A DNA stretch of 36,805 bases from Verrucomicrobiia bacterium (lineage in GTDB: Bacteria > Verrucomicrobiota > Verrucomicrobiia > Limisphaerales > UBA11358). Of this stretch, positions 13,309 through 34,262 are shown piece by piece. The position numbers and the translations under genes are program-made. The notes under the pieces were generated by a model. The model saw only the letters and a program-made list of their open reading frames with translations. It was not told the DNA's origin and made no database searches. Location of the stretch: positions 1 to 36,805 of the forward strand of contig DATCFH010000206.1 in assembly GCA_036509625.1 (NCBI GenBank), written 5' to 3'. Position 1 is the stretch's first letter; every line of letters starts with the position of its first letter.

Positions 13309-13318
13309 AAAATAAAAA

Positions 13319-14194: not shown

Positions 14195-14229
14195 ATTATT
14201 GAAATTTCTAGGGGAAATGTTTGGGCTTG

Positions 14230-15072
14230 TCAATTGCCGACGTCGCTGTGAAAACCACCATACCAAGGCTGATTGGGAAAAGTTTGCGTCGGGGAAACAT
14301 AAACCTGCGTGCGGTCGGGCGCATTCACCATCCACGGCGGAAGCCGTCGGACAGGCATGATGTCCAGCCCCAGACTGGCCGTCAGAAACGACACGAGGTT
14401 CGGCAACGTGCCAGCGAGAATCTGGTCGTTTTGCAATTGGATTGCGGTGGTGATGAACGGCAGCGACGACAACGGATTTGAAAAGCCCGTGACCAACAAC
14501 AGGCGGGAAACAAGTTGCTCCAGATTAAAAACCATTATGGCGCTGAACTCATTTCCATCCGGCGACACAATCACCATCTGCCCGGCCTCCAGCAAAATGT
14601 GCGTATTATTTTTCAACGTCACCTGCACATGCCCTTCGAGATCGAGAATTTTGAAACGGCCGTCCGGCAGCACCGCGCAAACCATCGTCGTTCCCAGCAC
14701 CGCCGCCGCCGTGCCGCGATACCGAACCGTTCCGCCGCCAACGCCAGCCGGCGGATGAAACAACACGCTGCCCTTTTCCAATAGAATATTTCTTCCGCCC
14801 GGCTCAAAAGTAAAAACCGTGTTCGCGCCGACGCGCGTAATGGTTTGATCCGGCGCGGTCATTTCCACGCGCGACGCCGGGCCGGTGCGAACCAAATCCG
14901 GCACTTTGAAAACCGTGTTCGTCACGGCGGGCGTCACGGATTTATTGGCGGCGGCGAGCACATCTGCCGTGCGGATAATTTCCGTGAAAGTGCTTTCTGT
15001 CAGCGGGGTCACTGCCAGCGCCGATACGCGGGTGCAAACGGCCAAGCCGGCCAGAAGAGAAAAAGTTTTCAT
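14230..15072 (-). CDS. Secreted FecR-domain protein (paralog 1)
   Basis: Signal peptide MKTFSLLAGLAVCTRVSALA. The FecR-like core is LVRTGPASRVEMTAPDQTITRVGANTVF...LEKGSVLFH...GTAAAVLGTT...ILLEAGQMVIV. Confidence 0.8.
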   Translation of the reverse strand: MKTFSLLAGLAVCTRVSALAVTPLTESTFTEIIRTADVLAAANKSVTPAVTNTVFKVPDLVRTGPASRVEMTAPDQTITRVGANTVFTFEPGGRNILLEKGSVLFHPPAGVGGGTVRYRGTAAAVLGTTMVCAVLPDGRFKILDLEGHVQVTLKNNTHILLEAGQMVIVSPDGNEFSAIMVFNLEQLVSRLLLVTGFSNPLSSLPFITTAIQLQNDQILAGTLPNLVSFLTASLGLDIMPVRRLPPWMVNAPDRTQVYVSPTQTFPNQPWYGGFHSDVGN

Positions 15073-17384: not shown

Positions 17385-20300
17385 ATGCATAGCCAGTTGC
17401 CTGCCCATCTCATCGCGCACATCAACGTCAAACTCGCCCTCATCGGCTGCTCGCCCGTGCCGCTCGAAGGCGACAAGGAATTCGTCGAGATCGCCGCCGC
17501 GATGGCCGCGCAATCGCGCGAAAAAGACCGGCTGCTCGGCCAGCATCTTTGTCCCGCCGACGCGCGCATCCAGACTTTTCTCTACGATTATTTGCAGGAC
17601 ATTCCCGCGCCGAAATTGCCCGCGCGCACGTTCACGCTCGACCGCGCGGGTCTCGCGCGGGTGCTTTCGCTGCCGGTTGACCGCAATGATTTTTCATCCG
17701 ACATCATCAATTCCTACCGCGTCAAACAAGGCGTTTTACACAATCCGAAAAGCGACCGCCGCACGACCGCCGGAATTTTTCACGTCTGCGAAGGCGGTTT
17801 GCCGATTCCCGACGACAAGCTCGGCGTGCCGAAAGCTACGTTCGCAAAAATCGTCCAGCACGCGCTCACGCCGCCACGCGAACTGCTGAAATTGCCGTTC
17901 ACTTCCACGCAGCCGCAGCCGGCGGAATGTTTCGTCACGCTGTTGATCCGCCCGCTCGTGTGTCCCGAAGTTCCCGGCTTCACCAAAAAGAAAACGATGG
18001 AAGTCCGCTTCTTCGTGCCGGGCAATCTCGTGAGCAATTTGGATTTCGTCGAAGCCATTTTTGAAAACGGCGGCGACCCGTTGCTGCCGGAAAATGACGC
18101 CGCACTCGACACGGAACATTGGAGCGGCCACACCGGCTGCATCATTCTTGCGCCGCATTTGACGAAGCTCACGAAAAAATCCGTCGGTTTGCCGGATTGG
18201 GATTCCGCCACGGAACGCCAGCGGCGCGACGGGATGTGCTGGAAAAAAGAAGACGAACTTTACAACGGCGGCAACGCTTTCAAGCTGACCTGCCGTGACG
18301 AAACGGGCGTCATTGTTACGATTATCGCCGACAATTATTTCGGCTATTGCAAAAAAGAAGTGAAGACGCAGTTGAGTTACGCCGCCAATTTGTTCGGTCT
18401 CGCCGAAGAAGAACACGCGGGCGGCGCGCTCGTTTTTCAGAGCTACGATCTCGGCGAGGAATTCAGCGGCGATGTCCACGTCCGTCGGCTCGGCCATCGT
18501 TTTGAGGAAGTGGCCGCCCTATTCGCCGGCGCGCTAGAGGTGAAGCCGGAAGGCTACGCGGTGGACAAAAAATTTCCGGAGATTCTCTACATTCCGCACG
18601 ACGCGCATTTTGATTTGAAGTCGCAAAAAGTTTCGTGGACGAATGCGACGGGCGATCACGCCATCAAACTTTCGCCGGAAAAAACTTACGTCCGCCCGTC
18701 CGGCTACAAGGTCAAAATGGAAAAACCGCCGGGCGCGGGACGTCAATGGCGGCTCGTCGGCACGGTCGCCGAAGGAACTTTCTGCCACAAGCCCTGCACG
18801 GTTTCCGGCGGCGGCAAATCGGAAATTTCAAAACCGATCACGGACGCAATTTTGACCGGCCCGGTTTTTGTTTCGGATTTGAAAAACGATTTTGACCGCG
18901 TCGAAGAATTGATTGACCGCGATTACTCAAATCGTTTTGCCGACCAGGCGCACACCGACGCGCGCACCGTGCTTTCGCCCGAACGCTCGCTTGGCTCCGT
19001 CATCAAACTGCTCACGCCGGACGAACACGATTACACGCCGAATTACAATACCTGGCTCGCGTCGTTGCCGCAGCACGTCAAGGAACTCGCCTTCGTCGTG
19101 AAGCGCTATTACAAGCCGGAATGGGGCGCGGACTGGCGCGCGCATTTCAGCGTGGACATCATCAACGGCATACCCGGCAACGAACTCAAGTGCGACAACC
19201 GCAAGCTCGTCACGACTTATTTGCGCGTCGGTTTCGACGGCGACGGCGCGTGGCGCACGTTTGGTTTGCGCAAGGATTTTTATCCCGCCGTCAAAGTGCA
19301 GATGGAAGACGATATCACCGCGTCCACCGTTGTGCCACCGGGTTTGCTGGAAGATTTGCCCGCCAACATTGATGAAAACTGCTCGCTTAAGTTTGCCCAG
19401 AACTGTGAACAGCGTTTATTCCAGCGCCCCGACGACGCGATTCATCGCGGCTACGACAAGCAGGCGGAACTGGATTTCGTGCAGCCGGAAAATTTCTTTT
19501 CCAATTACGAACCGCTCACGCCGAAAAATGCGCGCGACATGGTGGAGGACGCGCTGGGCTTCCACGAGTTCACCGAGCCGATGCAAAGGTTCGTGGGCGA
19601 AGTCGCGGCGACGGGCGCGCCGGATTATTTTGTCTGCACCGCGAATCCGCGCATCGTGGACGGCAAGCCGACGAAAAATCCACGCTACTTGCAAAAGCGT
19701 CCCGACCTCGTGCGCGCGAGCGAAACGTATCTGGCGGAAATTTCCGCGCGCCTGCGCCGCCGCGTGCCGCCGGAAAAACCGTTATACACACCGGTCACCG
19801 CCGTGTTGCCGGGACGCCGCAACAATCCGCCGGAAACCGGCATCCGCGCGCTGGCGTGCTACAACCCGATTCATTTCATGGAATTGCCGGAATTGTTCAT
19901 GGAAGTGATTTGCAGCATGACCGGCAAATCGCCTTCGACCACCGGCGCGGGTTCGGAAGGCGCGCTGACGAAAGGGCCGTTCAACGCGCTGCCGCCGATC
20001 ATTGACCTGAACAACGCGCTCGTGTCATTTATTCTTACGGGACAAAACGCGTTTGTGACCGCCGCCGGTTACGTCGGGCCAAATCTGCGTGTGGATCACG
20101 ATGTCAGTTTGATTGTGCCGGAAATCTGGTGTCGCCTGACCGCCGAGGAACGCAATCCGAAATTTCTCATCGCGAACCATTTTCTCGACAAGTGCGCGGA
20201 CTTTGAGCACGACGGTAAAAAAGTTTTGGCGAGCCGGCTCGGCTGGCGCATCAACGCGCGCTTCGTCCACAATTTTTTTGGCCGTATGTTCAACCATCCG

Positions 20301-20801
20301 CAGGCCGTGTTCACCGAGGCGATGCTCAAGCCGGAATTACAGGGCAAAGACATTTTTGCGGATGGCATGGACAACATCGTGGCCACGCAAAAACGCGTCG
20401 CAAAAATGTATTTCGCCGACGGCAGCATCGCGCAGGCGTGCCCGCCGTTGCAGGCGTTGCTGCACATCATGCTCAACGACGAATGGGACGGGAAACAGCT
20501 CGACCATGCGGAGGTTCGGAAACTTTTTACGCGCGAAAACCTGCTGGCAAGCCCGTGGTATGCGGCGCGTTTGGCGGCGAAACAAAAAGTGGATCGTAAT
20601 CTCTGGAAGCGCCACGTCGAATGCTTGAACCAGTTTTTACGCCGCCCGAATTACACGGACGTTTCGGAAAAGCTCGGCATCGCGGACCGCCTCACGGCCG
20701 CGCGAAAAACTTTGGAAGCGGTCGAGTCTGCGGATTATCCGAAGCAACTGGTGGGAACCATCGGTGCGGAGCCGATTGAAAATTACGCGCGCGCAAGTTA
20801 G
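17385..20801 (+). CDS. Large conserved cytoplasmic protein (1138 aa); possibly PPi-dependent phosphoenolpyruvate carboxykinase (tentative)
   Basis: The uninterrupted 1138-codon ORF is very likely real. No signal peptide or TM helix is apparent. A P-loop-like CTVSGGGKSEISK resembles the kinase-1a loop of PEPCKs, and IIADNYFGYCKKE sits where ATP-PEPCKs have IGDDEHGW. The size matches the roughly 130-kDa PPi-PEPCK family. The functional call rests on memory only. Confidence 0.45.
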   Translation: MHSQLPAHLIAHINVKLALIGCSPVPLEGDKEFVEIAAAMAAQSREKDRLLGQHLCPADARIQTFLYDYLQDIPAPKLPARTFTLDRAGLARVLSLPVDRNDFSSDIINSYRVKQGVLHNPKSDRRTTAGIFHVCEGGLPIPDDKLGVPKATFAKIVQHALTPPRELLKLPFTSTQPQPAECFVTLLIRPLVCPEVPGFTKKKTMEVRFFVPGNLVSNLDFVEAIFENGGDPLLPENDAALDTEHWSGHTGCIILAPHLTKLTKKSVGLPDWDSATERQRRDGMCWKKEDELYNGGNAFKLTCRDETGVIVTIIADNYFGYCKKEVKTQLSYAANLFGLAEEEHAGGALVFQSYDLGEEFSGDVHVRRLGHRFEEVAALFAGALEVKPEGYAVDKKFPEILYIPHDAHFDLKSQKVSWTNATGDHAIKLSPEKTYVRPSGYKVKMEKPPGAGRQWRLVGTVAEGTFCHKPCTVSGGGKSEISKPITDAILTGPVFVSDLKNDFDRVEELIDRDYSNRFADQAHTDARTVLSPERSLGSVIKLLTPDEHDYTPNYNTWLASLPQHVKELAFVVKRYYKPEWGADWRAHFSVDIINGIPGNELKCDNRKLVTTYLRVGFDGDGAWRTFGLRKDFYPAVKVQMEDDITASTVVPPGLLEDLPANIDENCSLKFAQNCEQRLFQRPDDAIHRGYDKQAELDFVQPENFFSNYEPLTPKNARDMVEDALGFHEFTEPMQRFVGEVAATGAPDYFVCTANPRIVDGKPTKNPRYLQKRPDLVRASETYLAEISARLRRRVPPEKPLYTPVTAVLPGRRNNPPETGIRALACYNPIHFMELPELFMEVICSMTGKSPSTTGAGSEGALTKGPFNALPPIIDLNNALVSFILTGQNAFVTAAGYVGPNLRVDHDVSLIVPEIWCRLTAEERNPKFLIANHFLDKCADFEHDGKKVLASRLGWRINARFVHNFFGRMFNHPQAVFTEAMLKPELQGKDIFADGMDNIVATQKRVAKMYFADGSIAQACPPLQALLHIMLNDEWDGKQLDHAEVRKLFTRENLLASPWYAARLAAKQKVDRNLWKRHVECLNQFLRRPNYTDVSEKLGIADRLTAARKTLEAVESADYPKQLVGTIGAEPIENYARAS

Positions 20802-22153: not shown

Positions 22154-22229
22154 GCGAGCGTAGCTCAGTTGGTAGAGCATCACGTTGCCAACGTGAACGT
22201 CGAGGGTTCAAGTCCCTTCGCTCGCTCCA
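22154..22229 (+). tRNA. tRNA-Gly (anticodon GCC), with encoded CCA
   Basis: I folded the cloverleaf by hand. Acceptor stem GCGAGCG/CGCTCGC, D arm GCTC-AGTTGGTA-GAGC, anticodon arm TCACG-TTGCCAA-CGTGA, variable loop ACGTC, T arm GAGGG-TTCAAGT-CCCTT, discriminator T, then CCA. Total length is 76 nt. Confidence 0.95.
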
Positions 22230-22423
22230 CTCTTTTATTCGGATTTCTGCAAATTCCCGCCACCTTGGCCGAATTTTTCTCGGTATTCGATCCCTTCCCG
22301 CTCATGCTTTATCATGCCGTTTGGTGCGGACTTAAAAAATATCCGGATGCACGGCAGTAAAACATATCCGTCCAACCGATGTGTAAGCAGCGTCCATGTC
22401 GAGATGGAAGCTGACGCAAAACA

Positions 22424-23143
22424 TTAGCGGAGGATTGATTGGTTGGATTTAAGCCATTGCTCAGCCATTAAGTAATCTGGGCACAAACGCTCCACTTCCT
22501 GCCAAAATTTATTGGAATGATTCATCTGCTTACGATGTGCCAGTTCATGCAGGATGATATAATCGCGAACAAATGTCGGCGTCTGAATCAATCGCCAGTT
22601 CAGTGAAATTGTTCCTCTCCTCGAACATGAACCCCACCGTGATTTTTGATTCCTGACTGATACGCGCGAAACCTCAATGCCGTGAAGGGCTGCCAATTCC
22701 ATGACCCGCGCTAGAAATTCCTGTTGAGCGAGTTTACGAAGATACTTTTGAATTGCTGGTCTCAAATCCACAGACACATCACGAAGATCCAACAATTCAG
22801 AACCAAAGCGAATCCGTCCAGCCGTTTCAACCTCAATCCGCACAAGCTCACCCCTAAACAAAATCTCTGTTCCCAGCCTCCATTCAGTTACGGTTTTGGG
22901 TTGTGCGGCTAACCGTTGGAATTGCAGTTCCAGCCAGCCGATGTTTCTTAAAGCAAATTCTGTGGCAGCCTTAATCGAACCCCTCCTCGGAACCGTGACG
23001 CGCGCAACCCCATCCTGTCGTAAGCGTAAAAGATAACGACGGGCACGCGGATGATGCACGAATAACAATGACACCGATCTTGAGCCTACTTGCAAAACAT
23101 CGGTCTTCGGCTCTGGCTTAAATCTAAAAAGTTGGTCGAACAT
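22424..23143 (-). CDS. YgjP/DUF45-type (M48-like) metal-dependent hydrolase
   Basis: The C-terminal signature is WGSCSRRGTISLNWRLIQTPTFVRDYIILHELAHRKQMNHSNKFWQEVERLCPDY, with HELAH as the HExxH motif. I prefer the ATG at 23143; a TTG at 23167 is also possible. The gene is visibly more AT-rich than its neighbours. Confidence 0.8.
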   Translation of the reverse strand: MFDQLFRFKPEPKTDVLQVGSRSVSLLFVHHPRARRYLLRLRQDGVARVTVPRRGSIKAATEFALRNIGWLELQFQRLAAQPKTVTEWRLGTEILFRGELVRIEVETAGRIRFGSELLDLRDVSVDLRPAIQKYLRKLAQQEFLARVMELAALHGIEVSRVSVRNQKSRWGSCSRRGTISLNWRLIQTPTFVRDYIILHELAHRKQMNHSNKFWQEVERLCPDYLMAEQWLKSNQSILR

Positions 23144-23225
23144 TGTGCTGCTAATGTTTTCGCCCAATGCACAGGGAATGTAAAGACGCGGCTGAACGGG
23201 AAATGACTGGCCTACGAAATTGTGA

Positions 23226-23504
23226 TTAATTCATCAACGCCCGCCGTCCGTGACAGTTGCGCCCGTCGAGCAAAAACAAATCGTCGAGTGGAGCGGCTTT
23301 ACGGGTCGCACCGAGCCGGTGGAGTCGGTGGAAATTCGCCCGCGCGTTTCCGGTTACATTCAGGAAGTGCGTTTTCAATCCGGTCAGTTGGTGAAGAAAG
23401 GCGACGTGCTTTCCGTCATTGATCCGCGCTGGCATCAGGCAGTGTTCGATCAGCGCCAGGCTGAATATGGCCACGCCAAAAGCGAGAACGATCGCACCGC
23501 TTAA
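23226..23504 (+). pseudogene. Remnant of an RND/MFP efflux periplasmic adaptor gene, truncated at both ends
   Basis: The fragment translates as [75 protein letters not shown]. This matches the N-terminal lipoyl/hairpin-start region of AcrA/MexA-type adaptors. An in-frame stop at 23223-23225 removes the signal/lipobox region. The frame ends after about 90 codons, overlapping the stop of the SecA-like gene. Confidence 0.6.
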
Positions 23505-25489
23505 ATAGTGTCACCACCCGCGAACGACAGCGCCTCGTCCAGCCGCAAATCGGAACGCACCACGTCTTTGCGTTGCTTGAATGCCAGTGCCTGCGCCTTG
23601 CGCTGGGCAAAGTTAAAAGCCCACTTCGCAATTTTTTCTTTGCCCGGCAAATTACTTTTGACCACGACTTTTTGAACTGGTTTCGGCAGGTATTTGCAAA
23701 TCAACTCGTCCTCAAAACTCACGAATGCCTGCGCGCTGCCGGGATCGCCTTGCCGACCGGCGCGACCAAATAATTGCCGATCCACACGACCAGATTCGTG
23801 CAACTCCGTCGCGATGACGTGCAAGCCGCCCAACGCGACCATGTCTTGACCCAGCTTGATGTCCGTGCCGCGACCGGCCATGTTCGTCGCGATAATAATT
23901 CGTCCTTTTTCGCCGGCGAGTGAAATAAGTTCCGCCTCTTCCTTCAATCGCGTCGCGTTCAAAATTTTTGCTTCCAGCCCGCGCTCGCTCAGCCATTGCC
24001 ACAACCGTTCGCTCGCCAAAACGCTGCGCGTGCCGACGAGCAGCGGTCTTCCCGTCGCGTGCATTTTTTCAATCTCGGCAATGATTGCGCGCCATTTACC
24101 TTTTTCGTCCGCAAAAAATTGATCCGGCAATTGCTTGCGGACGCACGGCTTGTTCGGCGGAATCGCCACCGTCGGCAAACCATAAACCTGCCACAATTCG
24201 CCCGCCGCTTCGCGCGCCGTGCCGGTCATGCCGGACAACTTGTGAAAGCATTTGAAAAATCTTTGGAAACTTAAACGCGCAATTGTTTCCGTCGGATCGG
24301 AAATCGTCAGACCTTCTTTCGCCTCGACGGCCTGGTGCATGCCCGCGCGCCACGAACGTTGCGGCATCGGGCGTCCGGTAAATTCATCCACGATGACAAT
24401 CTTGTCGCCTTCGATGATGTATTGCTGGTTGCGATGAAAAAATTCGCGCGCGACCAACGCTTGAATGACCAATTCCAATCGCCGGTCTTGCCCTTGCCAC
24501 AAGCCGGGCAGATGTGCGGCTTGCGCGACCATTTTTTTCAGACCATCTTTCGTCAGCTCGATTTCCTTGTAGCGCGGATTGGTGTGATAATCAATTTCCG
24601 GCTTCAAGACGGAAATCATTTCCTGCGCGAGTTCGGCGGCGTTGCGGAGCGATTCATTTTTGTGGCTGGCGGAAATTATCAGCGGCGTCACCGCTTCATC
24701 AATCAAAATGCTGTCCGCCTCATCCACAATGGCCGTGTGCAAACCGCGCAAAACCATGCCGTCTTGAACTTCCAGTTGCGGCGCAAGCATCCGGCGAATC
24801 AGGCGGCGTGTTGGATTTTGCATTTTTCCCAGATGCAAACGGTCACGCAAAAAGTCCGCGAGCAGTTCTTTGCTCGTGACGTAAGTAATATCGCAATTGT
24901 AATTTTTTACACGTTCGGTTGGATTGCTCGAACCTGTGACAAAACCAACGCGCACGCCGCAAAAATGGTAGAGCGGCTCCAGCCGTTCCGCGTCGCGCTG
25001 AACCAAATAATCATTCACCGTCACGATGTGGCACGGATGTTTGGTCCAACCCGCAAGAACGGCTGCGAGTCCCGCCGTCAAAGTTTTGCCTTCGCCCGTC
25101 GCCATTTCCGCGAGGTGTCCGCGATGCAACGCCAGCACGCCCACGAGCTGAACCGGAAACGGCCGCAAGCCAAGTTTGCGATCCGCCGCTTCGCGAATCG
25201 CCGCGAGCGCGGGCAGCAGAAATTTTTCCGCCACTTTTCCGCCGCGCCGGAAATGTTCGCGAAATTCCAGCAGCCGTTTTTGCAACTGCGCGTCGGAAAG
25301 TTCAACCCATTCGCGTTCCTGTAAAACGATTTTATCCGCGTCTTGCTTGAGCGATTCGAGGATTTTTTTGCGGCGACGAAACTTGCCGATGCCACTGTTC
25401 ACGAGCGCATCAAGGCCGGCGAGCGGGCGCGGTGGCACGCGATAATCGCTGCGCCGGTAGTCTTGCGTGGGAATCGCAATCATGGGCAT
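23501..25489 (-). CDS. SecA-family ATPase paralog, C-terminally truncated (662 aa)
   Basis: SecA motor motifs are present: [38 protein letters not shown], a PPXD-like segment [28 protein letters not shown], then [26 protein letters not shown] and [31 protein letters not shown]. The protein ends about 90 aa after the last motor motif. Confidence 0.85.
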
Positions 25490-27640
25490 TCAAATCTGAT
25501 AGCGCTTCTGGAGCAGTTGCCAGAGGCTGCGCGTCCAGCGCGGCAACAGCGGCTGCGGCTCCAGTTTGAAACTGATTTTTCCCGAACGACCGTCGAGCAG
25601 CGCGACGCCAGCCTGCGAATTCAAATCACCCAGCACTTCAAAAAACGGTTCGGCGGATTTGTTGCCCTGCGAATTTTCGTCCAGTGCCACCGGCACTTCG
25701 CCGCCCGCGCTCCAGCCGAGTGCCGCCGACGGCAAAATGTGTTGTCCGCCGGGAATCACGCGCCAATGCGCGACGGGCATTTTTTCTCCAGCCGTGCCGT
25801 AAAGCCGCACGTTCGCGCCGTAAATTTTTTTGGCGAACAGCGCGTTCACATCTTCTTCTCGCACCGTCGCGGCAAATTCAAATGCAGCGGGATTCGCGAG
25901 CAAACCCAAATCCGAACCGCGCGGCAGCCAGCGGCCAACGTAATCTTCAATGCCGGGCGCGACCCAAACGCCATCGTGCCGCGCGCGGACGGTCAAATTT
26001 TTCGAATCTTGCGTGAGTTTTTTTAACTCGTCGCTGACGGAATCGCGCAAGCTGGTCAGCGGCGTGATGTCGGCGGAATCTTTGTCCATCGCCTGCAACA
26101 AACGCGCATTTACTTCACCCAAATGCGCGCGCGTATCGGCCAATTCCAAAGTCAGCTCGGAATTTTTCAATTGCAGCAACGGCTGGCCTTGCTTCACCTG
26201 ACTGCCCGATGCGACCAGCAATTCCACAACTTCGCCCGCCGTTTCGCTGGCGACTTGCGTGCGTTGCGTGGCGATAACAATGCCCGGCGCGCGGAACGAA
26301 TACGGAAACGGCACCACGGCGAGCAGCACAATCAAAACCGCCGCGATGCCCGCCGTCACCGCAATGGCGCGTGGACGCACGCGGTCGAGGCGCGGATTGG
26401 AAGAAAGATATTTTACAAAACGAATGACCGGCGCGATTGCCCATGAAATCAAACACGCGGCGGCCATCACGATGCCGATGATTAAAAACCGGTCGGCGAC
26501 GAAAAGCAAAACGCCGCTGAAAACGATGACACGATAAATTCCACTTGTGATGCCAAAAACCGTTAGCCAAGTCGCTTCGCGGCGCGTAGCGGCCTGGGTT
26601 TCGGAATTTTTTACGCCGAACAAATGACGTTCACAGAGATGCCGCAGTTGCGTCGTGGCGCGCTGGTTGAGATTTGGAATTTCCAGCAGGTCGGACAAAA
26701 TATAATAGCCGTCGAAGCGCAGCAGCGGATTGAGATTGAAAATCAACGTCGAGACCGACGCGACGAACATGATGTTGTAGGCGATGCTGTGGACGACGCC
26801 CGGCGCGGTTTTCGACCAGACGAACGCGGCGATGGCGGCAAAAAATAATTCCACAATCATGCCCGCCGCGCCGACGAGCACGCGTTTCCAGCGTTCGCGA
26901 AAACTCCAACTTGAGGTCGCGTCCACATACGGCATCGGCGTAAAAACCATGAGCATCACGCCCATGACGTGAACTTCGCCGCCGAAACGCCGGCAAAAAT
27001 AGGCGTGACCGAATTCGTGCAGCGCCTTGATGCCAATCGTGCTGAGGTAGAGCAGGAATAAATTGTTCGTCGCGAGAATGCCTTCGCCTTGCACACGCAA
27101 GTCGCTGAAATTATCCACGGCAATTTTCAATCCGAAGCCGACGACGAATAGCCACAACAACGCGCCGAACGGACTGATTAGTTTTTTGACGACCGGCATT
27201 GTGCGAACGAGAAAACGATCAGGGTCGAGCAACGGAAATCGCATGAACATGATGTTCAGGAAACGAAAACCGATTTCGCGCTGCTTGCGTTTTTTGTAGC
27301 GCTCAAAAAGCTGCGCGCTATCAGCGGCCAAATCGTATTGCAGCAGATTGGAAAAATAGAGCTGCGACAAAAGTTGGATGACGGCTTCCTGACTCGGCGC
27401 GATGTCGGGAAAACGATTCAAACATTGCTGCCAAACTTCTTCGACAGTGCAATCGGGACGCAAACGCGAGACAAATTCGTAAGCCGCCGGACGCAGGCGG
27501 AAGTATTGGTTGCTGAACGGATTTTCGAGGACGATCCAGCGTTCGCCGCGAAAGTTCTGGCGGCGCACATTGATGGCCGGACGCAGGCAAATCTTTTGAT
27601 TCGCCACGCGATACCAGGATTCGCTAAAGGTTTTATCCAT
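25490..27640 (-). CDS. Fusion protein: PqqD/RRE-like N-domain, M50 site-2 metalloprotease membrane domain and HlyD-type periplasmic adaptor domain
   Basis: The M50 motifs HEFGH and NLNPLLRFDGYY sit in hydrophobic helices. The C-terminal third contains APGIVIATQRTQVASETAGEVVELLVASGSQVKQGQPLLQL plus a coiled coil, as in HlyD/MFP proteins. The N-terminal roughly 100 aa (RLRPAAYEFVSRLRPDCTVEEVWQQCLNRFPDIAPSQEAVIQLLSQLYFSNLL) resemble a PqqD-like peptide-binding domain. Confidence 0.8.
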   Translation of the reverse strand: MDKTFSESWYRVANQKICLRPAINVRRQNFRGERWIVLENPFSNQYFRLRPAAYEFVSRLRPDCTVEEVWQQCLNRFPDIAPSQEAVIQLLSQLYFSNLLQYDLAADSAQLFERYKKRKQREIGFRFLNIMFMRFPLLDPDRFLVRTMPVVKKLISPFGALLWLFVVGFGLKIAVDNFSDLRVQGEGILATNNLFLLYLSTIGIKALHEFGHAYFCRRFGGEVHVMGVMLMVFTPMPYVDATSSWSFRERWKRVLVGAAGMIVELFFAAIAAFVWSKTAPGVVHSIAYNIMFVASVSTLIFNLNPLLRFDGYYILSDLLEIPNLNQRATTQLRHLCERHLFGVKNSETQAATRREATWLTVFGITSGIYRVIVFSGVLLFVADRFLIIGIVMAAACLISWAIAPVIRFVKYLSSNPRLDRVRPRAIAVTAGIAAVLIVLLAVVPFPYSFRAPGIVIATQRTQVASETAGEVVELLVASGSQVKQGQPLLQLKNSELTLELADTRAHLGEVNARLLQAMDKDSADITPLTSLRDSVSDELKKLTQDSKNLTVRARHDGVWVAPGIEDYVGRWLPRGSDLGLLANPAAFEFAATVREEDVNALFAKKIYGANVRLYGTAGEKMPVAHWRVIPGGQHILPSAALGWSAGGEVPVALDENSQGNKSAEPFFEVLGDLNSQAGVALLDGRSGKISFKLEPQPLLPRWTRSLWQLLQKRYQI

Positions 27641-27641
27641 T

Positions 27642-29495
27642 TCACCACCAAAGTTTCATGCGCAGAAAATCCACCGTGCGATGCGTGAGAATCCAGAACA
27701 GCGTGCGTTTCTCCGTGGAAATTTTGCACAGGCCGGTCATGCCGGGACGCCACCATTGCACCGCGCCGTTGTCGGGTTTCAAGCGCACGATGAAAACGTT
27801 GCCGTCTTTTTTGGTGACGGCGGCGGGCTGGACGATTTGCAACGTGACGGGATATTTTATTTTTGGCTGCGTGACGAAAGCGATTTCGCCTTTCGATTTT
27901 CCAAGAATTTCCTGCACGTCGCGCTCGTTGATTTCGGCCTCGACATAAAGCGTGTCAATGCGCGCGACTTTGAAAAGTGCGTCGCCCTGCTTGACCGGCG
28001 ACGCAATGCGTTCACGCAAATCGCCTTCGACAACCACGCCGTCGAAAGTGGCTTTGATGACCGCGTCGTCGAGCCGATAGCGCACGAGATCGAGCCGCGC
28101 CTGTGCCTGCTGCGCCTGCGCGTTGGCAATGCTCATGTCGGCGATGCTGTTGGCGGCGCGCGCTTTTTCCGCCTCGCGCTGATAGCGCACGACATCCGCG
28201 AGCGCGCCCGATTGGTCGAGCAAAAGTTCACTGCGATTCAAACTCACGAGCGGCTGACTTTTGGCAACGTGATCGCCAGCGCGAACAAAAACTTGATCAA
28301 TGTATCCGTCGAACGGCGCGGTCAAATACTCGGCTTCGTCGCTGCGTAAAATGAAATTGCCCTCGACGCGATAATTCACGCGCACGAGAAACAGCGCGAT
28401 CAAAACGACCGCGAGAAAAATTGCGGTGACTTTGCTCCAAGTGTGTTCCGGCCCAAGCCAGCGGGAAAAATACTCGCGCGTGTGCGCCGCCCAGCGCGCG
28501 CCAAACCAGCGGTCGTAATTTTTCAATTCGCTCAAACGGCGCACGACTTGATCGCAGCACAAACGGATTTGTTGAAGTTCAACGGCGGTGAAATTTACGT
28601 CTTGCCGTTCGCACGTCAGCACGCCAACCACTTTGCCGTCGAGGCGCAAAGGAACGGAACAGATGTTGCCGGACTTTTGTTCGGCGGAAAATTTTTCGTG
28701 GTCGCGCGCGACCGTCGTGACGCCTTCTGGCGACGGAAAAAGAATTTCTTCGTCTTGATCCACGCATTCTTCCATCGCAACTTCGAGCGCCTGCGCGGCG
28801 GCCATCTGGCGATTGAACTGCTCGGTGCGGCTCATCGCGCGCAATTTGATGTAGCCGCCTTCGAGCCAGCCGAGGCTTGCGCGATCGCAGCGAAAGCGTG
28901 TGGCGACGCCGTTGCAAAACGCGAGCGCAGCGGAAAGAAATTTGGTCGCGTCGTTCACCGGCACGTTCAAATCCAAAACGGCGGCAAATTTTTCCACGTC
29001 GTTGCGCGATTTTTGCGCGAGCAGATTTTGTTGAAATGCCGTCGGCACATCGGCGACGAGACGCAAACGCGCGAGCGCCTCGTTCGCGGCGGATGCGGTA
29101 AAGTCCTTTAACTGCGCGGCGAAAATGACTTCATCCTCGGCGCGGGAAAGTTTCAAACGCACGGCGATGGTGAAACTGCCGCTGGCCATGTCGGTTTGCT
29201 CAACGAAACTGCCGCTGCTCAAACCGCGTTCGGCGATGGCTTCGAGTTGCGAGGTAAATTGCGTGCGCACACGCGACAAACCGGAGCCGGAATCCCATTC
29301 GCCAATTTTCGCCCAACGTGGCGTTTTGCCAGGATTGCCGAGCAGTAAAACGGCGATGTCCGCCGAAACTAACTTGGCGGCGGCGGCTAAAAAAGTCGGC
29401 CAAAAATTTTTCGGTTCTCCGGAAAACTGGCGCAGCGCGGCGAGTTCGTCCAGCGCGCGGGAAAATTCAGCGTTATTGCCGCCATTGGTTTCCAT
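27642..29495 (-). CDS. Cytoplasmic tandem GAF-like domains, one TM helix and a HlyD-family periplasmic adaptor domain
   Basis: GAF-like endings appear in ICSVPLRLDGKVVGVLTCERQDVNFTAVELQQIRLCCDQVV and in an earlier weaker copy. The TM helix is VTAIFLAVVLIALFLV. The HlyD signature is APFDGYIDQVFVRAGDHVAKSQPLVSL, followed by a coiled coil, IKATFDGVVVEGD and a beta-barrel end. Confidence 0.7.
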   Translation of the reverse strand: METNGGNNAEFSRALDELAALRQFSGEPKNFWPTFLAAAAKLVSADIAVLLLGNPGKTPRWAKIGEWDSGSGLSRVRTQFTSQLEAIAERGLSSGSFVEQTDMASGSFTIAVRLKLSRAEDEVIFAAQLKDFTASAANEALARLRLVADVPTAFQQNLLAQKSRNDVEKFAAVLDLNVPVNDATKFLSAALAFCNGVATRFRCDRASLGWLEGGYIKLRAMSRTEQFNRQMAAAQALEVAMEECVDQDEEILFPSPEGVTTVARDHEKFSAEQKSGNICSVPLRLDGKVVGVLTCERQDVNFTAVELQQIRLCCDQVVRRLSELKNYDRWFGARWAAHTREYFSRWLGPEHTWSKVTAIFLAVVLIALFLVRVNYRVEGNFILRSDEAEYLTAPFDGYIDQVFVRAGDHVAKSQPLVSLNRSELLLDQSGALADVVRYQREAEKARAANSIADMSIANAQAQQAQARLDLVRYRLDDAVIKATFDGVVVEGDLRERIASPVKQGDALFKVARIDTLYVEAEINERDVQEILGKSKGEIAFVTQPKIKYPVTLQIVQPAAVTKKDGNVFIVRLKPDNGAVQWWRPGMTGLCKISTEKRTLFWILTHRTVDFLRMKLWW

Positions 29496-29500
29496 AAAAA

Positions 29501-30226
29501 TTATTCCGTGGTGAGTTGCGCGGAAAGGCCGGGACGAATCTGGTCGGCGGCGTTGTCAAAAATGGCCTTCACTTTCGCGAGGCCGCTCGCGGCGTCCACG
29601 GTCGGCGAGATAAAACAGATTTTTCCGGGAATGATTACGCCGCCATCCACATGGATTTGCACCGCCTCGTCGAGTTGCAAATTGGAAGCGGCTTTGCCTT
29701 CGATGTGGCCGGTGAAATAGCAGCGCGAGGTGTCCACGAGGCGAACAAGCGGTTGATACGGCGCGACGGCGGCGCCGGGTTTGAGCAAGATTTCCGTGAT
29801 GCGCCCGGCAAACGGCGCGATGAGCTGGCGGTTGGCGAGTTGCTGGGCGGCGATACTGTAATCGGCGGCGGCGACATTGTATTCAGCCTCGGCTTTCTGC
29901 ATTTCTTCCTGACTTACGGATTTGGTGGTTTCGATAAGCTGGCGCGTGGAATCAAAAACCATTTTGTTTTGTTCCATCACGGATTTACGGCGCGCGACCT
30001 CGAATGTCTCCAGTTTATTGTCCAACTCCAAAATGGCGTCGCCTTTTTTAACGGCGTCGCCTTCCTTAAAATACTGGTCGCTGATGATGCCGGCGTCGGC
30101 GAGGCCGAGCGTCACGTCCATGAACGGCTCGGTAATGCCGCTGATGGTCACGGGAGCGGCGGCGCGCGCGATGGCAGAAAAATGAATGGCCGCCGCCAGC
30201 ATTAAAATTGGAATGAACTTAAACAT
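29501..30226 (-). CDS. Small secreted periplasmic adaptor (membrane-fusion-protein family, lipoyl plus short hairpin)
   Basis: Signal peptide MFKFIPILMLAAAIHFSAIARAAA. The sequence GIISDQYFKEGDAVKKGDAILELD is followed by a short coiled coil, LIAPFAGRITEILLKPGAAV, and the C-terminal LAKVKAIFDN...IRPGLSAQL. Confidence 0.7.
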   Translation of the reverse strand: MFKFIPILMLAAAIHFSAIARAAAPVTISGITEPFMDVTLGLADAGIISDQYFKEGDAVKKGDAILELDNKLETFEVARRKSVMEQNKMVFDSTRQLIETTKSVSQEEMQKAEAEYNVAAADYSIAAQQLANRQLIAPFAGRITEILLKPGAAVAPYQPLVRLVDTSRCYFTGHIEGKAASNLQLDEAVQIHVDGGVIIPGKICFISPTVDAASGLAKVKAIFDNAADQIRPGLSAQLTTE

Positions 30227-30237
30227 GATTTGGTAAA

Positions 30238-31995
30238 TTAATTGGCGCTGGGGCTGCTCAAAGCGGCGGCGCTGACTCCGTGCAACATCGCGGTGGTCTG
30301 GCGTCTCAACTCTTCGCGCGTGATGTCGAGGTTATGATTTTTCAGAATCGAGCCGACGGTGACTTCGACTTGCAGCAACGAGCGTTGGTATTGCGTGAGC
30401 GCGTTGGCGAGTTCCTGCCGCGCGTCGAGCAAATCGGCTTCGACTTCCAAAACCTTGTGACCGTCCACACGTCCGGCTTTGAGCCGTTCGAGTTGTGTCT
30501 TGAGCAATTCCTCGTTGAAGTGGACGACGGTTTGATAGCTCTGGATGCTTTGTTCCCACGCCTCGGCCTTTTCAATGGAAGTATTGAGACCATTGGCGAT
30601 TTCTGTCTGCACACCTTTCAAGCGGATGTAGGCGGCGTCGAGACTGAGCTTGGAGGCTTGATACAAATTGCGTCCCTTGATGTTGCCGCCCAGCGGCACG
30701 CTTAATTCCACGCCAATCAACCACGAAGGATACGTCTGCTGCTGCGCCATGTTCCACGAACTGTCCGTGGTGAGGCCGAGGCCGTTGAAACCGTAGGCGG
30801 TCTTAAAATCCAGATTCGGCAGCAATTGATTTTTCGCCACGCCGAGCCGCACGCGCTCTTCATCCAATTTTTTTTGCTGAATCAAATAATCGGGATTCAA
30901 GTCAAACGCTTCCTGATAATTGTCCGCGTAGGAAATGGCCGGACTGGTTTCGCGCGGCGTGTCGGTCACGCGAAAAACCGGCTCGCTCGGGCCAGCCAGA
31001 TGCTGGGGAATACTGGTGTCCAAACGCACCTGCTGGTTGCCAAGCGGATCGTAATAATGCCGGAGCGGCGTCGGATTGCCGAGCAACACCCGCAGCGCGC
31101 CCTGCGCATCATAATAACTTTGCAACGCGTCATTCCGTTTGGTGTAACGTAGCGCCAACGCCGATTGCGCCTCCAACACATCAAGCTCCGCGCCCTGGCC
31201 CGCCTTCAATTTTTCGCGGCTGTCGTCCAAAACATTTTGCGCCACCGCCACAGACTGATCGAAGAAATGCACCTGCTCCTGCGAAAAATAAAGATTCCAA
31301 TACGCACTCTCCGCGCGAAACACCGTCACCATCAACTGCTGGCGGTATTCCTGAAAAGCGATGTCCGATTCCAGCGCGGACAGCCGGAGATTGGCCAGCG
31401 TTGGCGTCAGCCAGCCATTTTTCAAAATCGGCTGGGTGAACGTCACGCCCACAAAAGTCTGATACTGCTTGCTCCAATACCCATTCGTTGAAGTTAAAAA
31501 ACTGGCATTCGGATTCACGTTGTTAGCCAGATCGCTCAATGTGTAGCCCAGCCGGATTTTGCCGCCGGTGGGAATCAAATCCTCCACCCCAAAATCATAA
31601 ATATTATTTCGTTCGCTGAAATAACCCTGGCCATTCTGTTGCGCCTGTTGCTGGACATTGTTGGTGCGCTGGTTAGATTCGCGCGTGTAGGCCGCCTGAA
31701 ATTCCGGCTCGAAAATGCCCGCCTCGGCCTTATTTTTGTGCCGCGCGACTTCCGTCTCCAACATTTGCGCCTGCACCGATTCATTGTGCTGCATCACTTG
31801 CGCCAGATAATCGTTCAGCTTGATTCCAATGACCGGAACGTCATTCGTCGCCGCGCTGGATTTTGGCACAAACGCCAGTCCGTCCGCGCCCACGGCCAGA
31901 AATACTAAAACCCTTGCTGACAAGGAGAATAACCATTGCGTCCGCCGCTGCATAAGCTCTGCAAAAAACATTGGACGAAAGCGTAGCAGGGTCAA
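30238..31995 (-). CDS. TolC-family outer-membrane efflux/secretion duct protein
   Basis: The protein shows the two-repeat OEP architecture: LNDYLAQVMQHNESVQAQ...LPNLDFKTAYGF...KLSLDAAYIRLKGVQTEI...LQVEVTVGS. Its N-terminus is signal-like. The start may instead be an internal Met (MQRRTQWLF, about 31953). Confidence 0.8.
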   Translation of the reverse strand: MTLLRFRPMFFAELMQRRTQWLFSLSARVLVFLAVGADGLAFVPKSSAATNDVPVIGIKLNDYLAQVMQHNESVQAQMLETEVARHKNKAEAGIFEPEFQAAYTRESNQRTNNVQQQAQQNGQGYFSERNNIYDFGVEDLIPTGGKIRLGYTLSDLANNVNPNASFLTSTNGYWSKQYQTFVGVTFTQPILKNGWLTPTLANLRLSALESDIAFQEYRQQLMVTVFRAESAYWNLYFSQEQVHFFDQSVAVAQNVLDDSREKLKAGQGAELDVLEAQSALALRYTKRNDALQSYYDAQGALRVLLGNPTPLRHYYDPLGNQQVRLDTSIPQHLAGPSEPVFRVTDTPRETSPAISYADNYQEAFDLNPDYLIQQKKLDEERVRLGVAKNQLLPNLDFKTAYGFNGLGLTTDSSWNMAQQQTYPSWLIGVELSVPLGGNIKGRNLYQASKLSLDAAYIRLKGVQTEIANGLNTSIEKAEAWEQSIQSYQTVVHFNEELLKTQLERLKAGRVDGHKVLEVEADLLDARQELANALTQYQRSLLQVEVTVGSILKNHNLDITREELRRQTTAMLHGVSAAALSSPSAN

Positions 31996-32048
31996 AATTC
32001 AGGGCAATGTTTTAAGCGGGAAAATTGCGCGTGTCGCCAAAAATATTT

Positions 32049-33251
32049 TTACATCGTCAGCGCCGCGTCCCAATCTTTCCACACCGGCTCGTAGCCAAGC
32101 TTGCGAATCAGTTCCGCGACTTCCTGCGGCGAACGTTCGTCCGCAATGTTGAATTGTCCCGTCGCATTCGTCGCGCGGTTTTCCTGCGGCGCCCATTCGC
32201 TCGCACCCGCTGCCAGTTCCACAATTTTCCCGCGCTCGGTATGATGGATTTTTTCCTTGCCCGCGCCGGTGTAACCGCCCGGCTCGGTGTGGCTGCCCGC
32301 GCTCATCATCGTTATCCCCAATGGAATCAAACCATCGCGCAGCTTCGGTGTTTCGCGCGTCGAAAGCACGATGCCGACATCGGGAAACATTATGCGGAAC
32401 GCGCAGATGAGTTGTGCCAGCTCGCGGTCGCTCAAATGCGTGAGCGGCTCGAACTCGCCCGCGCACGGACGCAAGCGCGGCAGCGAAATCGTAATCTGCG
32501 CTTTCCAACAATGACGCAACAAATAATCTGTGTGCGCCGCGAGACTCAATGCTTCCAACCGCCAGTCAGCCAGACCGTAAAGCGGCGCAATGCCAAGCCG
32601 ACGAAAACCGGCGGCGTAGGCGCGCTCCGGCGTTTCGAGCCGCCAATCAAAATTCCGTTTTGGTCCGGCAGTGTGCATCTGCGCGTAAATGTCGCGGTCG
32701 TAAGTTTCCTGATAAACCACAAGTCCATCCGCGCCCGCCGCGACGAGCGGCGCGTAATCGGCAGTTTCCATCGGCCCGACTTCGAGCGAGATGCCCGGCC
32801 AGTCCGCGTGCAGCACGGCGATGCAATCGCGCAGATAATTATTCGAGACAAATTTCGGATGTTCGCCCGCGACGAGCAAAATGTTGCGGAAGCCCTGCGC
32901 CTTTAATTCCTGCGCCTCGCGCAAAACTTCTTCGATGGAAAGCGTGACGCGCAAAATCGGATTGTCGCGCGAGAAACCGCAGTAAGAACAATTATTCACG
33001 CACTCATTGGAAAGATACAGCGGCGCAAAAAGGCGGATGGTTTTGCCGAAGCGCTGCTGCGTCAGCAACTGCGCTTTACGTCCGAGCACTTCGAGATTTT
33101 CCGCCGCGGCGGGGGAAATGAGCGCGGCGAAATCGGCGAGGGAAAATTTATCTTTCGCGGCGGCCTCGCGCGCAGCGGCCGCGCTGGTGGCGAGAGACTT
33201 TTTAACGAGCGCAGCCAGCGGCAGGGAATTAAATTCAGCGACAAAACTCAC
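32049..33251 (-). CDS. thiH: 2-iminoacetate synthase ThiH (radical SAM, thiamine thiazole branch)
   Basis: FAPLYLSNECVNNCSYCGFS carries the radical-SAM CxxxCxxC motif. GFRNILLVAGE, VYQETYD and ISLPRLRP match the ThiH pattern. Length is 400 aa. Confidence 0.85.
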   Translation of the reverse strand: MSFVAEFNSLPLAALVKKSLATSAAAAREAAAKDKFSLADFAALISPAAAENLEVLGRKAQLLTQQRFGKTIRLFAPLYLSNECVNNCSYCGFSRDNPILRVTLSIEEVLREAQELKAQGFRNILLVAGEHPKFVSNNYLRDCIAVLHADWPGISLEVGPMETADYAPLVAAGADGLVVYQETYDRDIYAQMHTAGPKRNFDWRLETPERAYAAGFRRLGIAPLYGLADWRLEALSLAAHTDYLLRHCWKAQITISLPRLRPCAGEFEPLTHLSDRELAQLICAFRIMFPDVGIVLSTRETPKLRDGLIPLGITMMSAGSHTEPGGYTGAGKEKIHHTERGKIVELAAGASEWAPQENRATNATGQFNIADERSPQEVAELIRKLGYEPVWKDWDAALTM

Positions 33252-33269
33252 GGAAACAGTCTAGTCGTA

Positions 33270-33302
33270 TCCCGCGCAAAGTCGAGTTGGGCTTTCGCGG
33301 GA
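33270..33302 (-). terminator. Hairpin between the GT2 gene and thiH; possible terminator or attenuator, with no U-tract
   Basis: TCCCGCG(C)AAAG at 33270-33281 pairs with CTTTCGCGGGA at 33292-33302. That gives a 10-bp stem with one bulge and a 10-nt loop, 28 nt after the upstream stop on the minus strand. Confidence 0.25.
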
Positions 33303-33329
33303 AAGGCGGCGGATGCGCCGCGCCGCACT

Positions 33330-34262
33330 TCAGCGTTTGGTGATAAGTTGTTCGAGTTCGAGCAGGCGGAGATTGATACTGTTCAAAATCAAACCGAGGC
33401 CAAGTGAAAAGAATGAAAGCAGTATCAGTGCGGCGGCCAGAATCGCACTCGGCACGCGATGGACAAAATGGTTCGGGTCGGTGACAAAATCATACACCGG
33501 CAACGAGCCAACGGCCATTCCCAGCGCGCATAAAATCAATGCGAGGCTGCCAAAAAAAGTCAACGGCTTGTAGGATTTTACGATGAGGAAAAGGCGCAGC
33601 AGCACGCGGAAACCGTCGCTGAACGTGTTTAATTTCGAGAAGCTGCCTGCGGGTCGCGCGCGATAGGGCGCGGGCATTTCCTGAATGACCTGGCCGCGAT
33701 ACAACGCCTGCAAAGTGAGTTCGGTTTCTACATCGAAGCCTTTCGTCGTGACGGGAATTTGCCGCGCGGATTCGCGCGTGAACGCGCGGTAGCCGGAAAA
33801 AATATCGGAGACGTGCGATTTAAACATCCAATTAATAATGCCGCAAACCATCTGGTTGCCGGCGACGTGGAGCGGGCGAAAAGATTTTTCGCTGTGGCTG
33901 GTGAGCCGCGTGGCGATGGTCATGTCGGCGTCGCCGCGCAAAACGGGTTTTAATAATTCGTGGACGTGGCTGGCTTCGTAAGTGTCATCGCCGTCCACCA
34001 TCACGAGAATGTCCTCGGTGATTTGCTCGAACATCGCGGCGACGACGTAGCCTTTGCCCTGACGTTTTTCGCGGCGGACAATCGCGCCAGCTTTGGCGGC
34101 AAGTTCCGCCGTGCCGTCGGTGCAATTATTGTCATAAACGTAAATGCGCGCGTCCGGCAGTTCGCGGCGAAAATCGGCAACGACTTTGGCGATGGTCACC
34201 GCTTCCTGATAGCAAGCAATCACCACGGCAACGCTGGGAGTGGACGCGGCAGTTTCTGACAT
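33330..34262 (-). CDS. GT2-family polyprenyl-phosphate glycosyltransferase (GtrB/ArnC/DPM1-like) with two C-terminal TM helices
   Basis: VAVVIACYQE, VYDNNCTDGT, VDGDDTY (the DxD motif), SGYRAF, and C-terminal hydrophobic helices (LTFFGSLALILCALGMAV and AILAAALILLSFFSLGLGLIL). Confidence 0.85.
   Translation of the reverse strand: MSETAASTPSVAVVIACYQEAVTIAKVVADFRRELPDARIYVYDNNCTDGTAELAAKAGAIVRREKRQGKGYVVAAMFEQITEDILVMVDGDDTYEASHVHELLKPVLRGDADMTIATRLTSHSEKSFRPLHVAGNQMVCGIINWMFKSHVSDIFSGYRAFTRESARQIPVTTKGFDVETELTLQALYRGQVIQEMPAPYRARPAGSFSKLNTFSDGFRVLLRLFLIVKSYKPLTFFGSLALILCALGMAVGSLPVYDFVTDPNHFVHRVPSAILAAALILLSFFSLGLGLILNSINLRLLELEQLITKR

Follow-up and report, generated by a model that had tools for sequence, protein, structure and literature searches.

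The closest described counterpart of the gene studied here is a gene module, associated with SecA_DEAD and related to type 1 secretion, that Kamneva, Poudel and Ward reported in 2015 in PLoS One, working from genomics only (PMC4452313). The authors proposed a role in secretion in which the SecA_DEAD protein would be the ATPase and the M50 protein might form a pore, and they inferred that the module had spread by horizontal transfer; they noted the M50 similarity as weak, did not mention PqqD or the recognition elements (RREs) of peptides that are made by ribosomes and modified post-translationally (RiPPs), and named no substrate (PMC4452313). Our target is an intact open reading frame (ORF) of 716 aa with an ATG start, located at 25490-27640 on the minus strand of a stretch of 36,805 nucleotides (the window) that represents contig DATCFH010000206.1 of assembly GCA_036509625.1, from a Verrucomicrobiia bacterium. 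The protein combines an RRE-like domain with an intramembrane protease of the M50 type and an adaptor that is predicted to be periplasmic, and it belongs to the 'cluster 1' protein type of the 2015 study. The set of genes around it is the one described there (Peptidase_M50/HlyD, GAF/HlyD, HlyD/Biotin_lipoyl, a secondary SecA_DEAD and sometimes OEP) and comes from the same phyla, which include Verrucomicrobia and Planctomycetes, and the window holds a typical, intact copy of the described module. The present analysis adds to that description an RRE fold, the conservation of the active site, a predicted topology and a link between the module and giant genes with an N-terminal LEPR-XLL leader. 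On the evidence presented below we give an even chance to the reading that the target is the leader-recognizing and leader-cleaving inner-membrane subunit of a type-1-like, TolC-dependent exporter of giant proteins that works without an ATP-binding cassette (ABC) transporter.

Several other known systems share part of this architecture. The daptide RRE-peptidase (MpaP, NCBIfam NF041824) has, like the target, an N-terminal RRE fused to an intramembrane M50 protease, and N-terminal fusions of an RRE to an intramembrane site-2 protease (S2P) served as the handle for daptide discovery in the daptide paper; the daptide enzymes, however, lack a fused adaptor, which the target has, and the target system is Gram-negative and linked to TolC, unlike the daptide system. 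No daptide genes (oxidative decarboxylase, aminotransferase, methyltransferase or DUF-RRE) were found in the window or in the related loci. By eye the daptide leader ELExMEAP resembles the LEALEPR of the leaders described below, a likeness that we record as a lead only. M50 proteases also help epipeptides and pearlins to mature, and for one of them, EpeP, a coupling of peptide cleavage to export has been proposed (PMC10885120). EpeP/YydH is a membrane M50 protease like the target, which matches the YydH/LiaK epipeptide protease family weakly (NF058609, E 7.5e-9), but it is Gram-positive, acts on a small peptide and has neither an RRE-adaptor fusion nor a SecA-like partner. In peptidase-containing ABC transporters (PCATs), a C39 cysteine-peptidase built into the ABC exporter cleaves the N-terminal leader before export through an adaptor and TolC. 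The target system would follow the same logic, in which a leader is recognized and cleaved by a protease within the inner-membrane exporter ahead of an adaptor-TolC tunnel, by analogy only; neither a C39 peptidase nor an ABC domain was found in the target or its operon by Pfam and NCBIfam profile searches, and their place would be taken by a zinc M50 protease, RRE recognition, a fused adaptor and a candidate SecA-paralogue motor. Finally, the canonical type 1 secretion systems (T1SS) such as HlyBD-TolC and LapBCE share with the target system the TolC channel, adaptors of the membrane-fusion type and, as far as the proposed cargo goes, giant proteins that are rich in repeats and have no Sec signal, but they use an ABC transporter and an uncleaved C-terminal signal, whereas the target system is ABC-less and has a candidate N-terminal LEPR-XLL leader. 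It is at most T1SS-like in its working and is not a canonical T1SS. A Chem Rev article reviewing T1SS contains nothing relevant on M50 or SecA.

The membrane core of the target comprises residues 157-444 (26309-27172; this and all other parts of the ORF are on the minus strand) and was delimited by Pfam PF02163, AlphaFold2 helices, hydropathy and the positive-inside rule. The single target sequence scores 29.1 bits against Peptidase_M50 (PF02163), above the gathering cut-off of 27.2. The zinc-binding and catalytic motif HEFGH (residues 208-212, 27005-27019) lies inside the predicted helix 191-218, and the second M50 motif, NLNPLLRFDGYY (residues 302-313, 26702-26737), which fits the NxxPxxxxDG pattern and supplies the Asp as third zinc ligand, is placed at the end of the predicted helix 282-302. 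These positions come from an AlphaFold2 model (mean pLDDT 86.5) based on an alignment of 41 full-length homologues with 31-51% identity to the target, in which H208, E209, H212, N302, N304, P305 and D310 are all invariant. Because the catalytic residues are invariant in these homologues, the conserved active site argues for a working protease. The best NCBIfam match of the target is the daptide RRE-intramembrane metalloprotease family NF041824 (residues 19-402, E 2.6e-53), at a score of 181.5 bits that is under the equivalog cut-off of 300, and by this measure the target is a relative of that family and not a member. A search of the PDB found no close relative of the target with a solved structure; the target-family profile weakly matched the M. 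jannaschii S2P structure 3b4r around HExxH (E 0.02).

The N-terminal domain (residues 17-102, 27335-27592) is predicted to be cytoplasmic and, in the structural model, has the winged-helix RRE/PqqD fold, a call that draws on AlphaFold2, Foldseek, Pfam PqqD and NF041824; leader binding is predicted by likeness. When the domain was modelled alone the pLDDT was 87.5, with block means of 95-97 over residues 11-100, and the model consists of strands at 24-30, 33-40 and 45-49 followed by helices at 51-57, 66-76 and 84-96. The top PDB folds in the Foldseek comparison were leader-bound lasso-peptide RREs, namely the B1 protein 6jx3_B and TbiB1 (5v1v/5v1u), with TM scores of 0.68-0.70 normalized to the target and a probability of 1.00, followed by entries for LynD, ThcOx and sactipeptide synthase. 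PqqD was matched in 26 of the 41 homologous N-terminal domains at E<=0.1, with a best E of 6.7e-9. Sequence-only searches of the PDB with this domain, both single and profile, returned nothing relevant, and fold comparison alone succeeded.

The C-terminal part (residues 445-716, 25493-26308) is a membrane-fusion adaptor of the HlyD/MacA type according to Foldseek and profile comparisons. It contains a lipoyl domain, an alpha-hairpin at 494-547 (helices 494-519 and 526-547) and a beta-barrel, and it matches MacA, MexA and AcrA with a Foldseek E of about 5e-12 over roughly 260-300 aligned columns; ZneB and CusB are also among the fold matches, for which the whole range of E is 5e-12 to 2e-8. The target-family profile matches chains of MacA, MexA, EmrA, HlyD and LipC, and several NCBIfam adaptor families match residues ~425-560. 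The single sequence scores 28.1 bits against Biotin_lipoyl_2 and 18.9 bits against HlyD_D23, both under the Pfam cut-offs. The AlphaFold2 model has seven long membrane helices (157-176, 191-218, 250-277, 282-302, 353-384, 386-414 and 422-442) and a beta-hairpin at 226-239 that is too short to span the membrane. Lys+Arg counts averaged over the 41 homologues are 9.7, 2.4, 5.5 and 2.8 for the loops placed in the cytoplasm and 0.6, 0.0 and 0.4 for those placed in the periplasm. The adaptor part is placed in the periplasm because of the seven predicted helices and the positive-inside rule, and in this predicted topology the RRE-like domain is cytoplasmic and the two zinc motifs are close to the cytoplasmic side of the membrane.

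Much of this architecture had been proposed in an earlier sequence-only reading of the window, whose domain boundaries proved essentially correct by profiles, alignment and AlphaFold2 folds. Its M50 motifs, HEFGH and NLNPLLRFDGYY, agree with the Pfam match and the invariant residues, its HlyD-type C-terminal third has the expected folds, and its PqqD/RRE-like N-terminal domain found its best counterparts among leader-bound RREs; the topology prediction that it had suggested places the adaptor part in the periplasm and not in the cytoplasm. It had also suggested a survey of how often the M50 and HlyD architecture occurs. When 1.84 billion cluster representatives were searched exhaustively by phmmer with the target as query, 13,067 of them matched with E<=1e-3, of which 4,467 reached E<=1e-30, and the M50-adaptor fusion is widespread among Gram-negative phyla. 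The best 150 representatives are mostly about 716 aa long and align end to end at 31-51% identity, and the others resemble fragments. Because the family is large and mostly full length, we consider the three-part fusion an old, conserved architecture. The impression that the fusion was an isolated oddity does not hold in view of these numbers, the module described in 2015 and the RRE-S2P fusions known from daptides; the remark that no characterized example was known still agrees with the searchable literature. The names that databases give the homologues ('putative peptide zinc metalloprotease protein', 'site-2 protease family protein', 'biotin/lipoyl-binding protein') carry little information, and the closest relatives with a name come from metagenome-assembled genomes of Chthoniobacteraceae.

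The target is the fourth of five contiguous minus-strand genes that span 23501-31995 with intergenic gaps of 0-11 nt, and these operon partners had been left out of the sequence-only reading. The first gene (30238-31995) encodes a TolC-family outer-membrane channel of 585 aa (Pfam OEP, E 9.4e-42). It is followed by a short membrane-fusion adaptor of 241 aa (29501-30226) with a signal-like hydrophobic stretch at its N-terminus, which scores 140 bits against TIGR01730, above the cut-off, and also matches HlyD_3 and HlyD_D23, and by a 617-aa protein (27642-29495) in which a GAF domain is fused to a membrane-fusion adaptor (Pfam GAF, HlyD_3, HlyD_D23). Between the stop codon of this gene and the start of the target ORF the distance is 1 nt, and the stop codon of the target ORF in turn abuts the start codon of the last gene, a truncated SecA-like ATPase of 662 aa (23501-25489; Pfam SecA_DEAD, SecA_PP_bind, P-loop_SecA). 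The alignment of the SecA-like protein with B. subtilis SecA is confined to residues 13-603 of the latter. The SecA-like protein retains the two nucleotide-binding domains (NBD1 and NBD2), the preprotein cross-linking domain (PPXD) and the start of the scaffold helix. Missing from it are the wing domain, the two-helix finger and the C-terminal tail, the parts with which SecA engages SecY. The target is the sole polytopic membrane component of the operon. A promoter and terminator scan of 22300-33400 gave fewer matches than shuffled sequences did and was uninformative on the ends of the operon.

A scan of one genome per GTDB species found a relative of the target in at least 563 species-level genomes, and synteny was counted in the best 80 of these loci, which cover Verrucomicrobiota, Planctomycetota, beta-, gamma- and delta-Proteobacteria, Nitrospirota, Myxococcota, Fibrobacter and Spirochaetota and include the cultured hosts Pseudomaricurvus alkylphenolicus, Vreelandella aquamarina and Marinobacterium mangrovicola. 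The gene for the GAF-adaptor is adjacent in 74 of the 80, usually directly upstream, and the SecA-like gene follows in 70, half of the exceptions being contig ends. TolC and the short adaptor are adjacent in roughly a third of the loci (about 24-31 of 80 for TolC). In two of the related loci, designated L084 (12148-14108, 518 + 125 aa) and L038 (7737-9480), a pair of neighboring ORFs stands in place of a single SecA-like gene, which may reflect a frameshift, a pseudogene or a sequencing error.

What the module might export is suggested by the genes beside it. A scan for Walker A plus LSGGQ found no HlyB-type ABC exporter in the window and 81 related loci and yielded only two small soluble ABC ATPase-like ORFs. 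A stop-free stretch of at least 1000 codons adjoins the module in 35 of the 57 loci with at least 6 kb of flanking DNA, a count that includes ORFs running off the ends of the loci, the longest of which reaches 2,654 codons up to the end of the fetched DNA; the called genes in further contigs repeat this pattern of a giant gene beside the module. Several of the giants bear RTX, Calx-beta, PKD, He_PIG, Big_9 or cadherin-type Ig domains, and judged by such domains the neighboring giants are extracellular-type proteins. For the giants of L002, L003 and L045, the first 1,100-2,600 residues contain no Pfam domain. When the related loci were scanned in six frames for LE[PQE]R.[LM][LFM], 12 matches came up, all 12 of them N-terminal in long ORFs and preceded by a start codon at a distance of 12-45 aa from the motif, whereas reversed sequences gave 6 matches with 0 qualifying and triplet shuffles 0-3 matches with at most 1 qualifying. 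With the FEPR and LEDR variants in L008 and L036, a total of 14 loci have LEPR-XLL-type giants, and 9 of the 14 N-termini pass the curated cut-off of the NCBIfam family NF012209, 'LEPR-XLL domain-containing protein'. In most of these loci the giant gene begins shortly after the SecA-like gene, at a distance of 164 nt in L002 and 148 nt in L003, the two loci that are the closest relatives of the window among the matches listed (78% identity for L002).

The association was also examined in the reverse direction, by searching metagenome contigs for the coding pattern LEALEPRxLLSAD, which was present in at least 120 stretches. Among the 120 stretches listed, the motif is at most 125 aa from the preceding stop in 117, and an ORF that is open-ended or at least 300 aa long, and in some cases more than 4,600 aa, follows it in 104. 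Of the listed stretches, 98 include 1 kb or more of DNA upstream of the motif gene, and in 17 of these the SecA-like gene is directly upstream on the same strand; 30 include 4.5 kb or more, and in 10 of these both the SecA-like and the M50-adaptor genes are upstream. The link between LEPR-XLL and the module is strong and not exclusive. The leader consensus is RR[KR][FLY]x[LF]EALEPR[LVI]LLSAD, without the hydrophobic core of a Sec-type signal, and the 30 residues before the LEPR motif hold 7.3 Lys+Arg versus 1.9 Asp+Glu. A homologue search with one LEPR leader returned three short fragments only, and the titles and abstracts found for LEPR-XLL in the searchable literature are unrelated to this system. 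By eye, the start of the leader, RR[KR][FL]x[LF], superficially resembles a twin-arginine motif (L088-L207 and L002/L003/L045).

Folds, catalytic residues, topology, operon, synteny, the absence of an ABC exporter and the two-way LEPR-XLL link were all computed, and from them we infer how a leader would be bound and cut, what would supply the energy and which component would serve as the inner-membrane conduit. The cytoplasmic RRE-like domain would capture the Arg-rich LEPR-XLL leader of a cargo that is typically giant, repeat-rich and extracellular and has no Sec signal, and the M50 active site near the cytoplasmic face of the membrane would remove this leader. The SecA-like motor, in which the ATPase domains and the polypeptide clamp are kept, would feed the unfolded chain forward, and the fused adaptor, the GAF-adaptor and the short adaptor could build a periplasmic tunnel to the TolC-like channel, with the cytoplasmic GAF domain probably gating the export system as a regulator. 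As far as sequence can tell, the likely substrate is probably the LEPR-XLL leader of the giants encoded beside the module in related genomes and not a small RiPP. The broader claim, that this is a distinct ABC-free pathway across two membranes in which a truncated SecA drives unfolded giant proteins, thousands of residues long, while an RRE reads and an S2P removes the LEPR-XLL leader in transit through a mixed adaptor tunnel and TolC, is one that we put forward with slightly more doubt than trust.

A number of observations weigh against the giant-exporter reading. The LEPR leader is charged and not transmembrane, while S2Ps normally cut membrane-embedded helices, and beyond the M50 core of the sole polytopic component there is no evident translocation pore. 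RTX repeats, which some of the neighboring giants contain, are typical of the cargo of ABC-type T1SS. The N-termini of most giant neighbors lie outside the fetched DNA, so their leaders are not visible, and among the matches listed only about a sixth to a third of the LEPR-XLL genes are adjacent to the module. The fold evidence for the RRE-like domain has modest Foldseek E values of 0.01-0.07, none of them <=0.001, and Pfam PqqD (PF05402) scores 18.9-21.0 bits on the target (residues 38-95), under the cut-off of 23.4; because of the modest E values, the RRE call also rests on the PqqD matches among the homologues and on the coverage by NF041824. The searchable literature contains no experimental work on the family and nothing that follows up the 2015 study. 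Lastly, since the window contains no LEPR-XLL, SapC or DUF3467 gene, the cargo of its own module would be encoded elsewhere in the genome or would have been lost.

The alternative that survives best retains the secretion of giants and assigns the M50 core a different task, mainly that of a conduit or scaffold, or of a protease that clears stalled cargo, with the RRE-like domain docking a partner other than LEPR; candidates for this partner are the SecA-like ATPase, a signal at the C-terminus and a chaperone, for example DUF3467 or SapC. The pore proposal of Kamneva et al. points this way (PMC4452313), as does the position of the target as the only polytopic membrane protein of the operon. Two features of the related loci are also consistent with it. 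First, the giants of L019 (136-4707), L024 (49-3216), L026 (14564-17227, minus strand) and L028 (39-3845) share the C-terminal motif (D/E)(Y/W)W(L/V/T)(D/E)xxxL-COOH, which may be a second sorting signal or merely a sign of common descent; it is confined to these four related beta-/gamma-proteobacterial giants beside the module, and its limitation to one group of related proteins weighs against this alternative. Second, the SapC family occurs in 9 related loci and DUF3467 in 16. The invariant catalytic residues nevertheless argue for real proteolysis, and the closest characterized relatives employ the RRE for leader binding, so that we regard this alternative as unlikely, though it deserves to be kept in mind. 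DUF3467 (for example L082 7020-7349) and SapC (for example L019 4801-5544) recur between the giant and TolC genes and could be cargo chaperones or accessory factors. No solved relative of DUF3467 was found; SapC is known from the sap S-layer export locus of Campylobacter fetus and is discussed as a T1SS operon component in a 2026 preprint. That preprint, on the giant proteins of Chlorochromatium, discusses SapC and TolC beside giant genes and does not cover the present module.

In the sequence-only reading the fusion had been taken for a dedicated component of peptide maturation and export. Its logic of recognizing, cleaving and bridging remains the best reading of the folds and the topology; a small peptide is not the likely substrate, given the LEPR-XLL giants and the lack of tailoring enzymes and of conserved small precursor genes beside the family. 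In its full form this alternative has the RRE bind the leader of a short RiPP or bacteriocin precursor, which the M50 protease would cut and which would leave through the adaptor and TolC. The RRE fold of the N-terminal domain, the best NCBIfam match to a daptide enzyme with a weaker one to YydH/LiaK, and the presence of M50 proteases in several RiPP pathways all favor such a function, but the daptide match, at 181 bits, is far under the equivalog cut-off, and clustering of all ORFs of at least 35 aa from the first 81 related loci and the window brought up neither a conserved family of small precursors nor tailoring enzymes; as extras, only giant genes, SapC and DUF3467 recur. For a short peptide, it is also difficult to account for a SecA-like motor that has a polypeptide clamp. 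We therefore judge a small-RiPP role improbable. The candidate small precursor ORFs turned out to be out-of-frame shadows of core genes. The ThiH-like radical-SAM gene just upstream of the operon (32049-33251) was considered as a RiPP maturase and was rejected because neither it nor the YgjP-like gene of the window is syntenic in any relative.

M50 proteases such as RseP and SpoIVFB act in classical regulated intramembrane proteolysis, and a signaling role of this kind, in which the S2P frees a membrane-tethered regulator and the adaptor-like part serves as a sensor, would agree with that classical role and with the GAF sensor protein encoded next door. The neighborhood, however, has no conserved anti-sigma factor, sigma factor or site-1 protease, and the adaptor fold, the TolC gene and the two further adaptors of the operon point to a conduit across the envelope, which makes signaling very improbable. 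That the target is an accessory subunit of a tripartite efflux pump for small molecules is hardly credible, for although the adaptors resemble those of resistance-nodulation-division (RND) and MacA systems and another RND-type adaptor gene fragment lies at 23250-23504, the operon and related loci contain no RND, major facilitator superfamily (MFS) or ABC pump gene, and the SecA-like and RRE domains both act on polypeptides.

For every secretion system named so far the motor and the signal are, to our knowledge, known. If the giant-exporter reading is true, its mechanism would be a new type of secretion pathway, LEPR-XLL would be a new class of cleavable secretion signal, and the system would be the first to bring a RiPP-type recognition element and a SecA motor into TolC-dependent secretion. 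Among the proteins of bacteria, some of the very largest may be exported by a widespread module that has no ABC transporter and whose candidate parts are a SecA paralogue, an intramembrane protease and a recognition domain borrowed from natural-product biosynthesis. The module was published in 2015 without a substrate, and because the LEPR-XLL link offers a concrete cargo, a signal and cultivable hosts, the question of export has become testable. This link would moreover account for what the LEPR-XLL N-terminal domain is for and would aid the annotation of many proteins mislabelled as 'site-2 protease family' or 'biotin/lipoyl-binding'. At the level of the window the result is more modest, an intact, typical module with no adjoining cargo gene.

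Several features in the vicinity of the module and in the rest of the window were recorded. On the plus strand at 23250-23504, an ORF of 84 aa (Biotin_lipoyl_2, E 3.8e-8) is an apparent N-terminal fragment of an RND-type membrane-fusion protein. It stops exactly at the end of the SecA-like gene, where L002 and L003 have the LEPR-XLL giant, and the junction may represent an insertion, a deletion or an assembly join. A tRNA-Gly(GCC) gene (22154-22229, plus strand) is located about 1.3 kb past the 3' end of the module, after the YgjP-like gene, and could mark an island boundary, given the reported horizontal spread of the module; the GC content gives no clear signal. A protein of 1138 aa (17385-20801, plus strand) matches the pyrophosphate-dependent phosphoenolpyruvate carboxykinases 6k31 and 8e1u end to end (E = 0) and has no Pfam or NCBIfam match, the family being seemingly absent from both libraries. 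The ORFs at 34342-36255 (minus strand), 778-1509 (plus), 9818-10702 (plus) and 12280-15072 (minus) are likewise without a Pfam or NCBIfam match, and one of them, of 637 aa, has GT2 glycosyltransferase ORFs on either side. The remainder of the window resembles ordinary chromosome and encodes RNase R, CvfB, multihaem cytochromes, a CHASE2-cyclase, UbiE and a response regulator.

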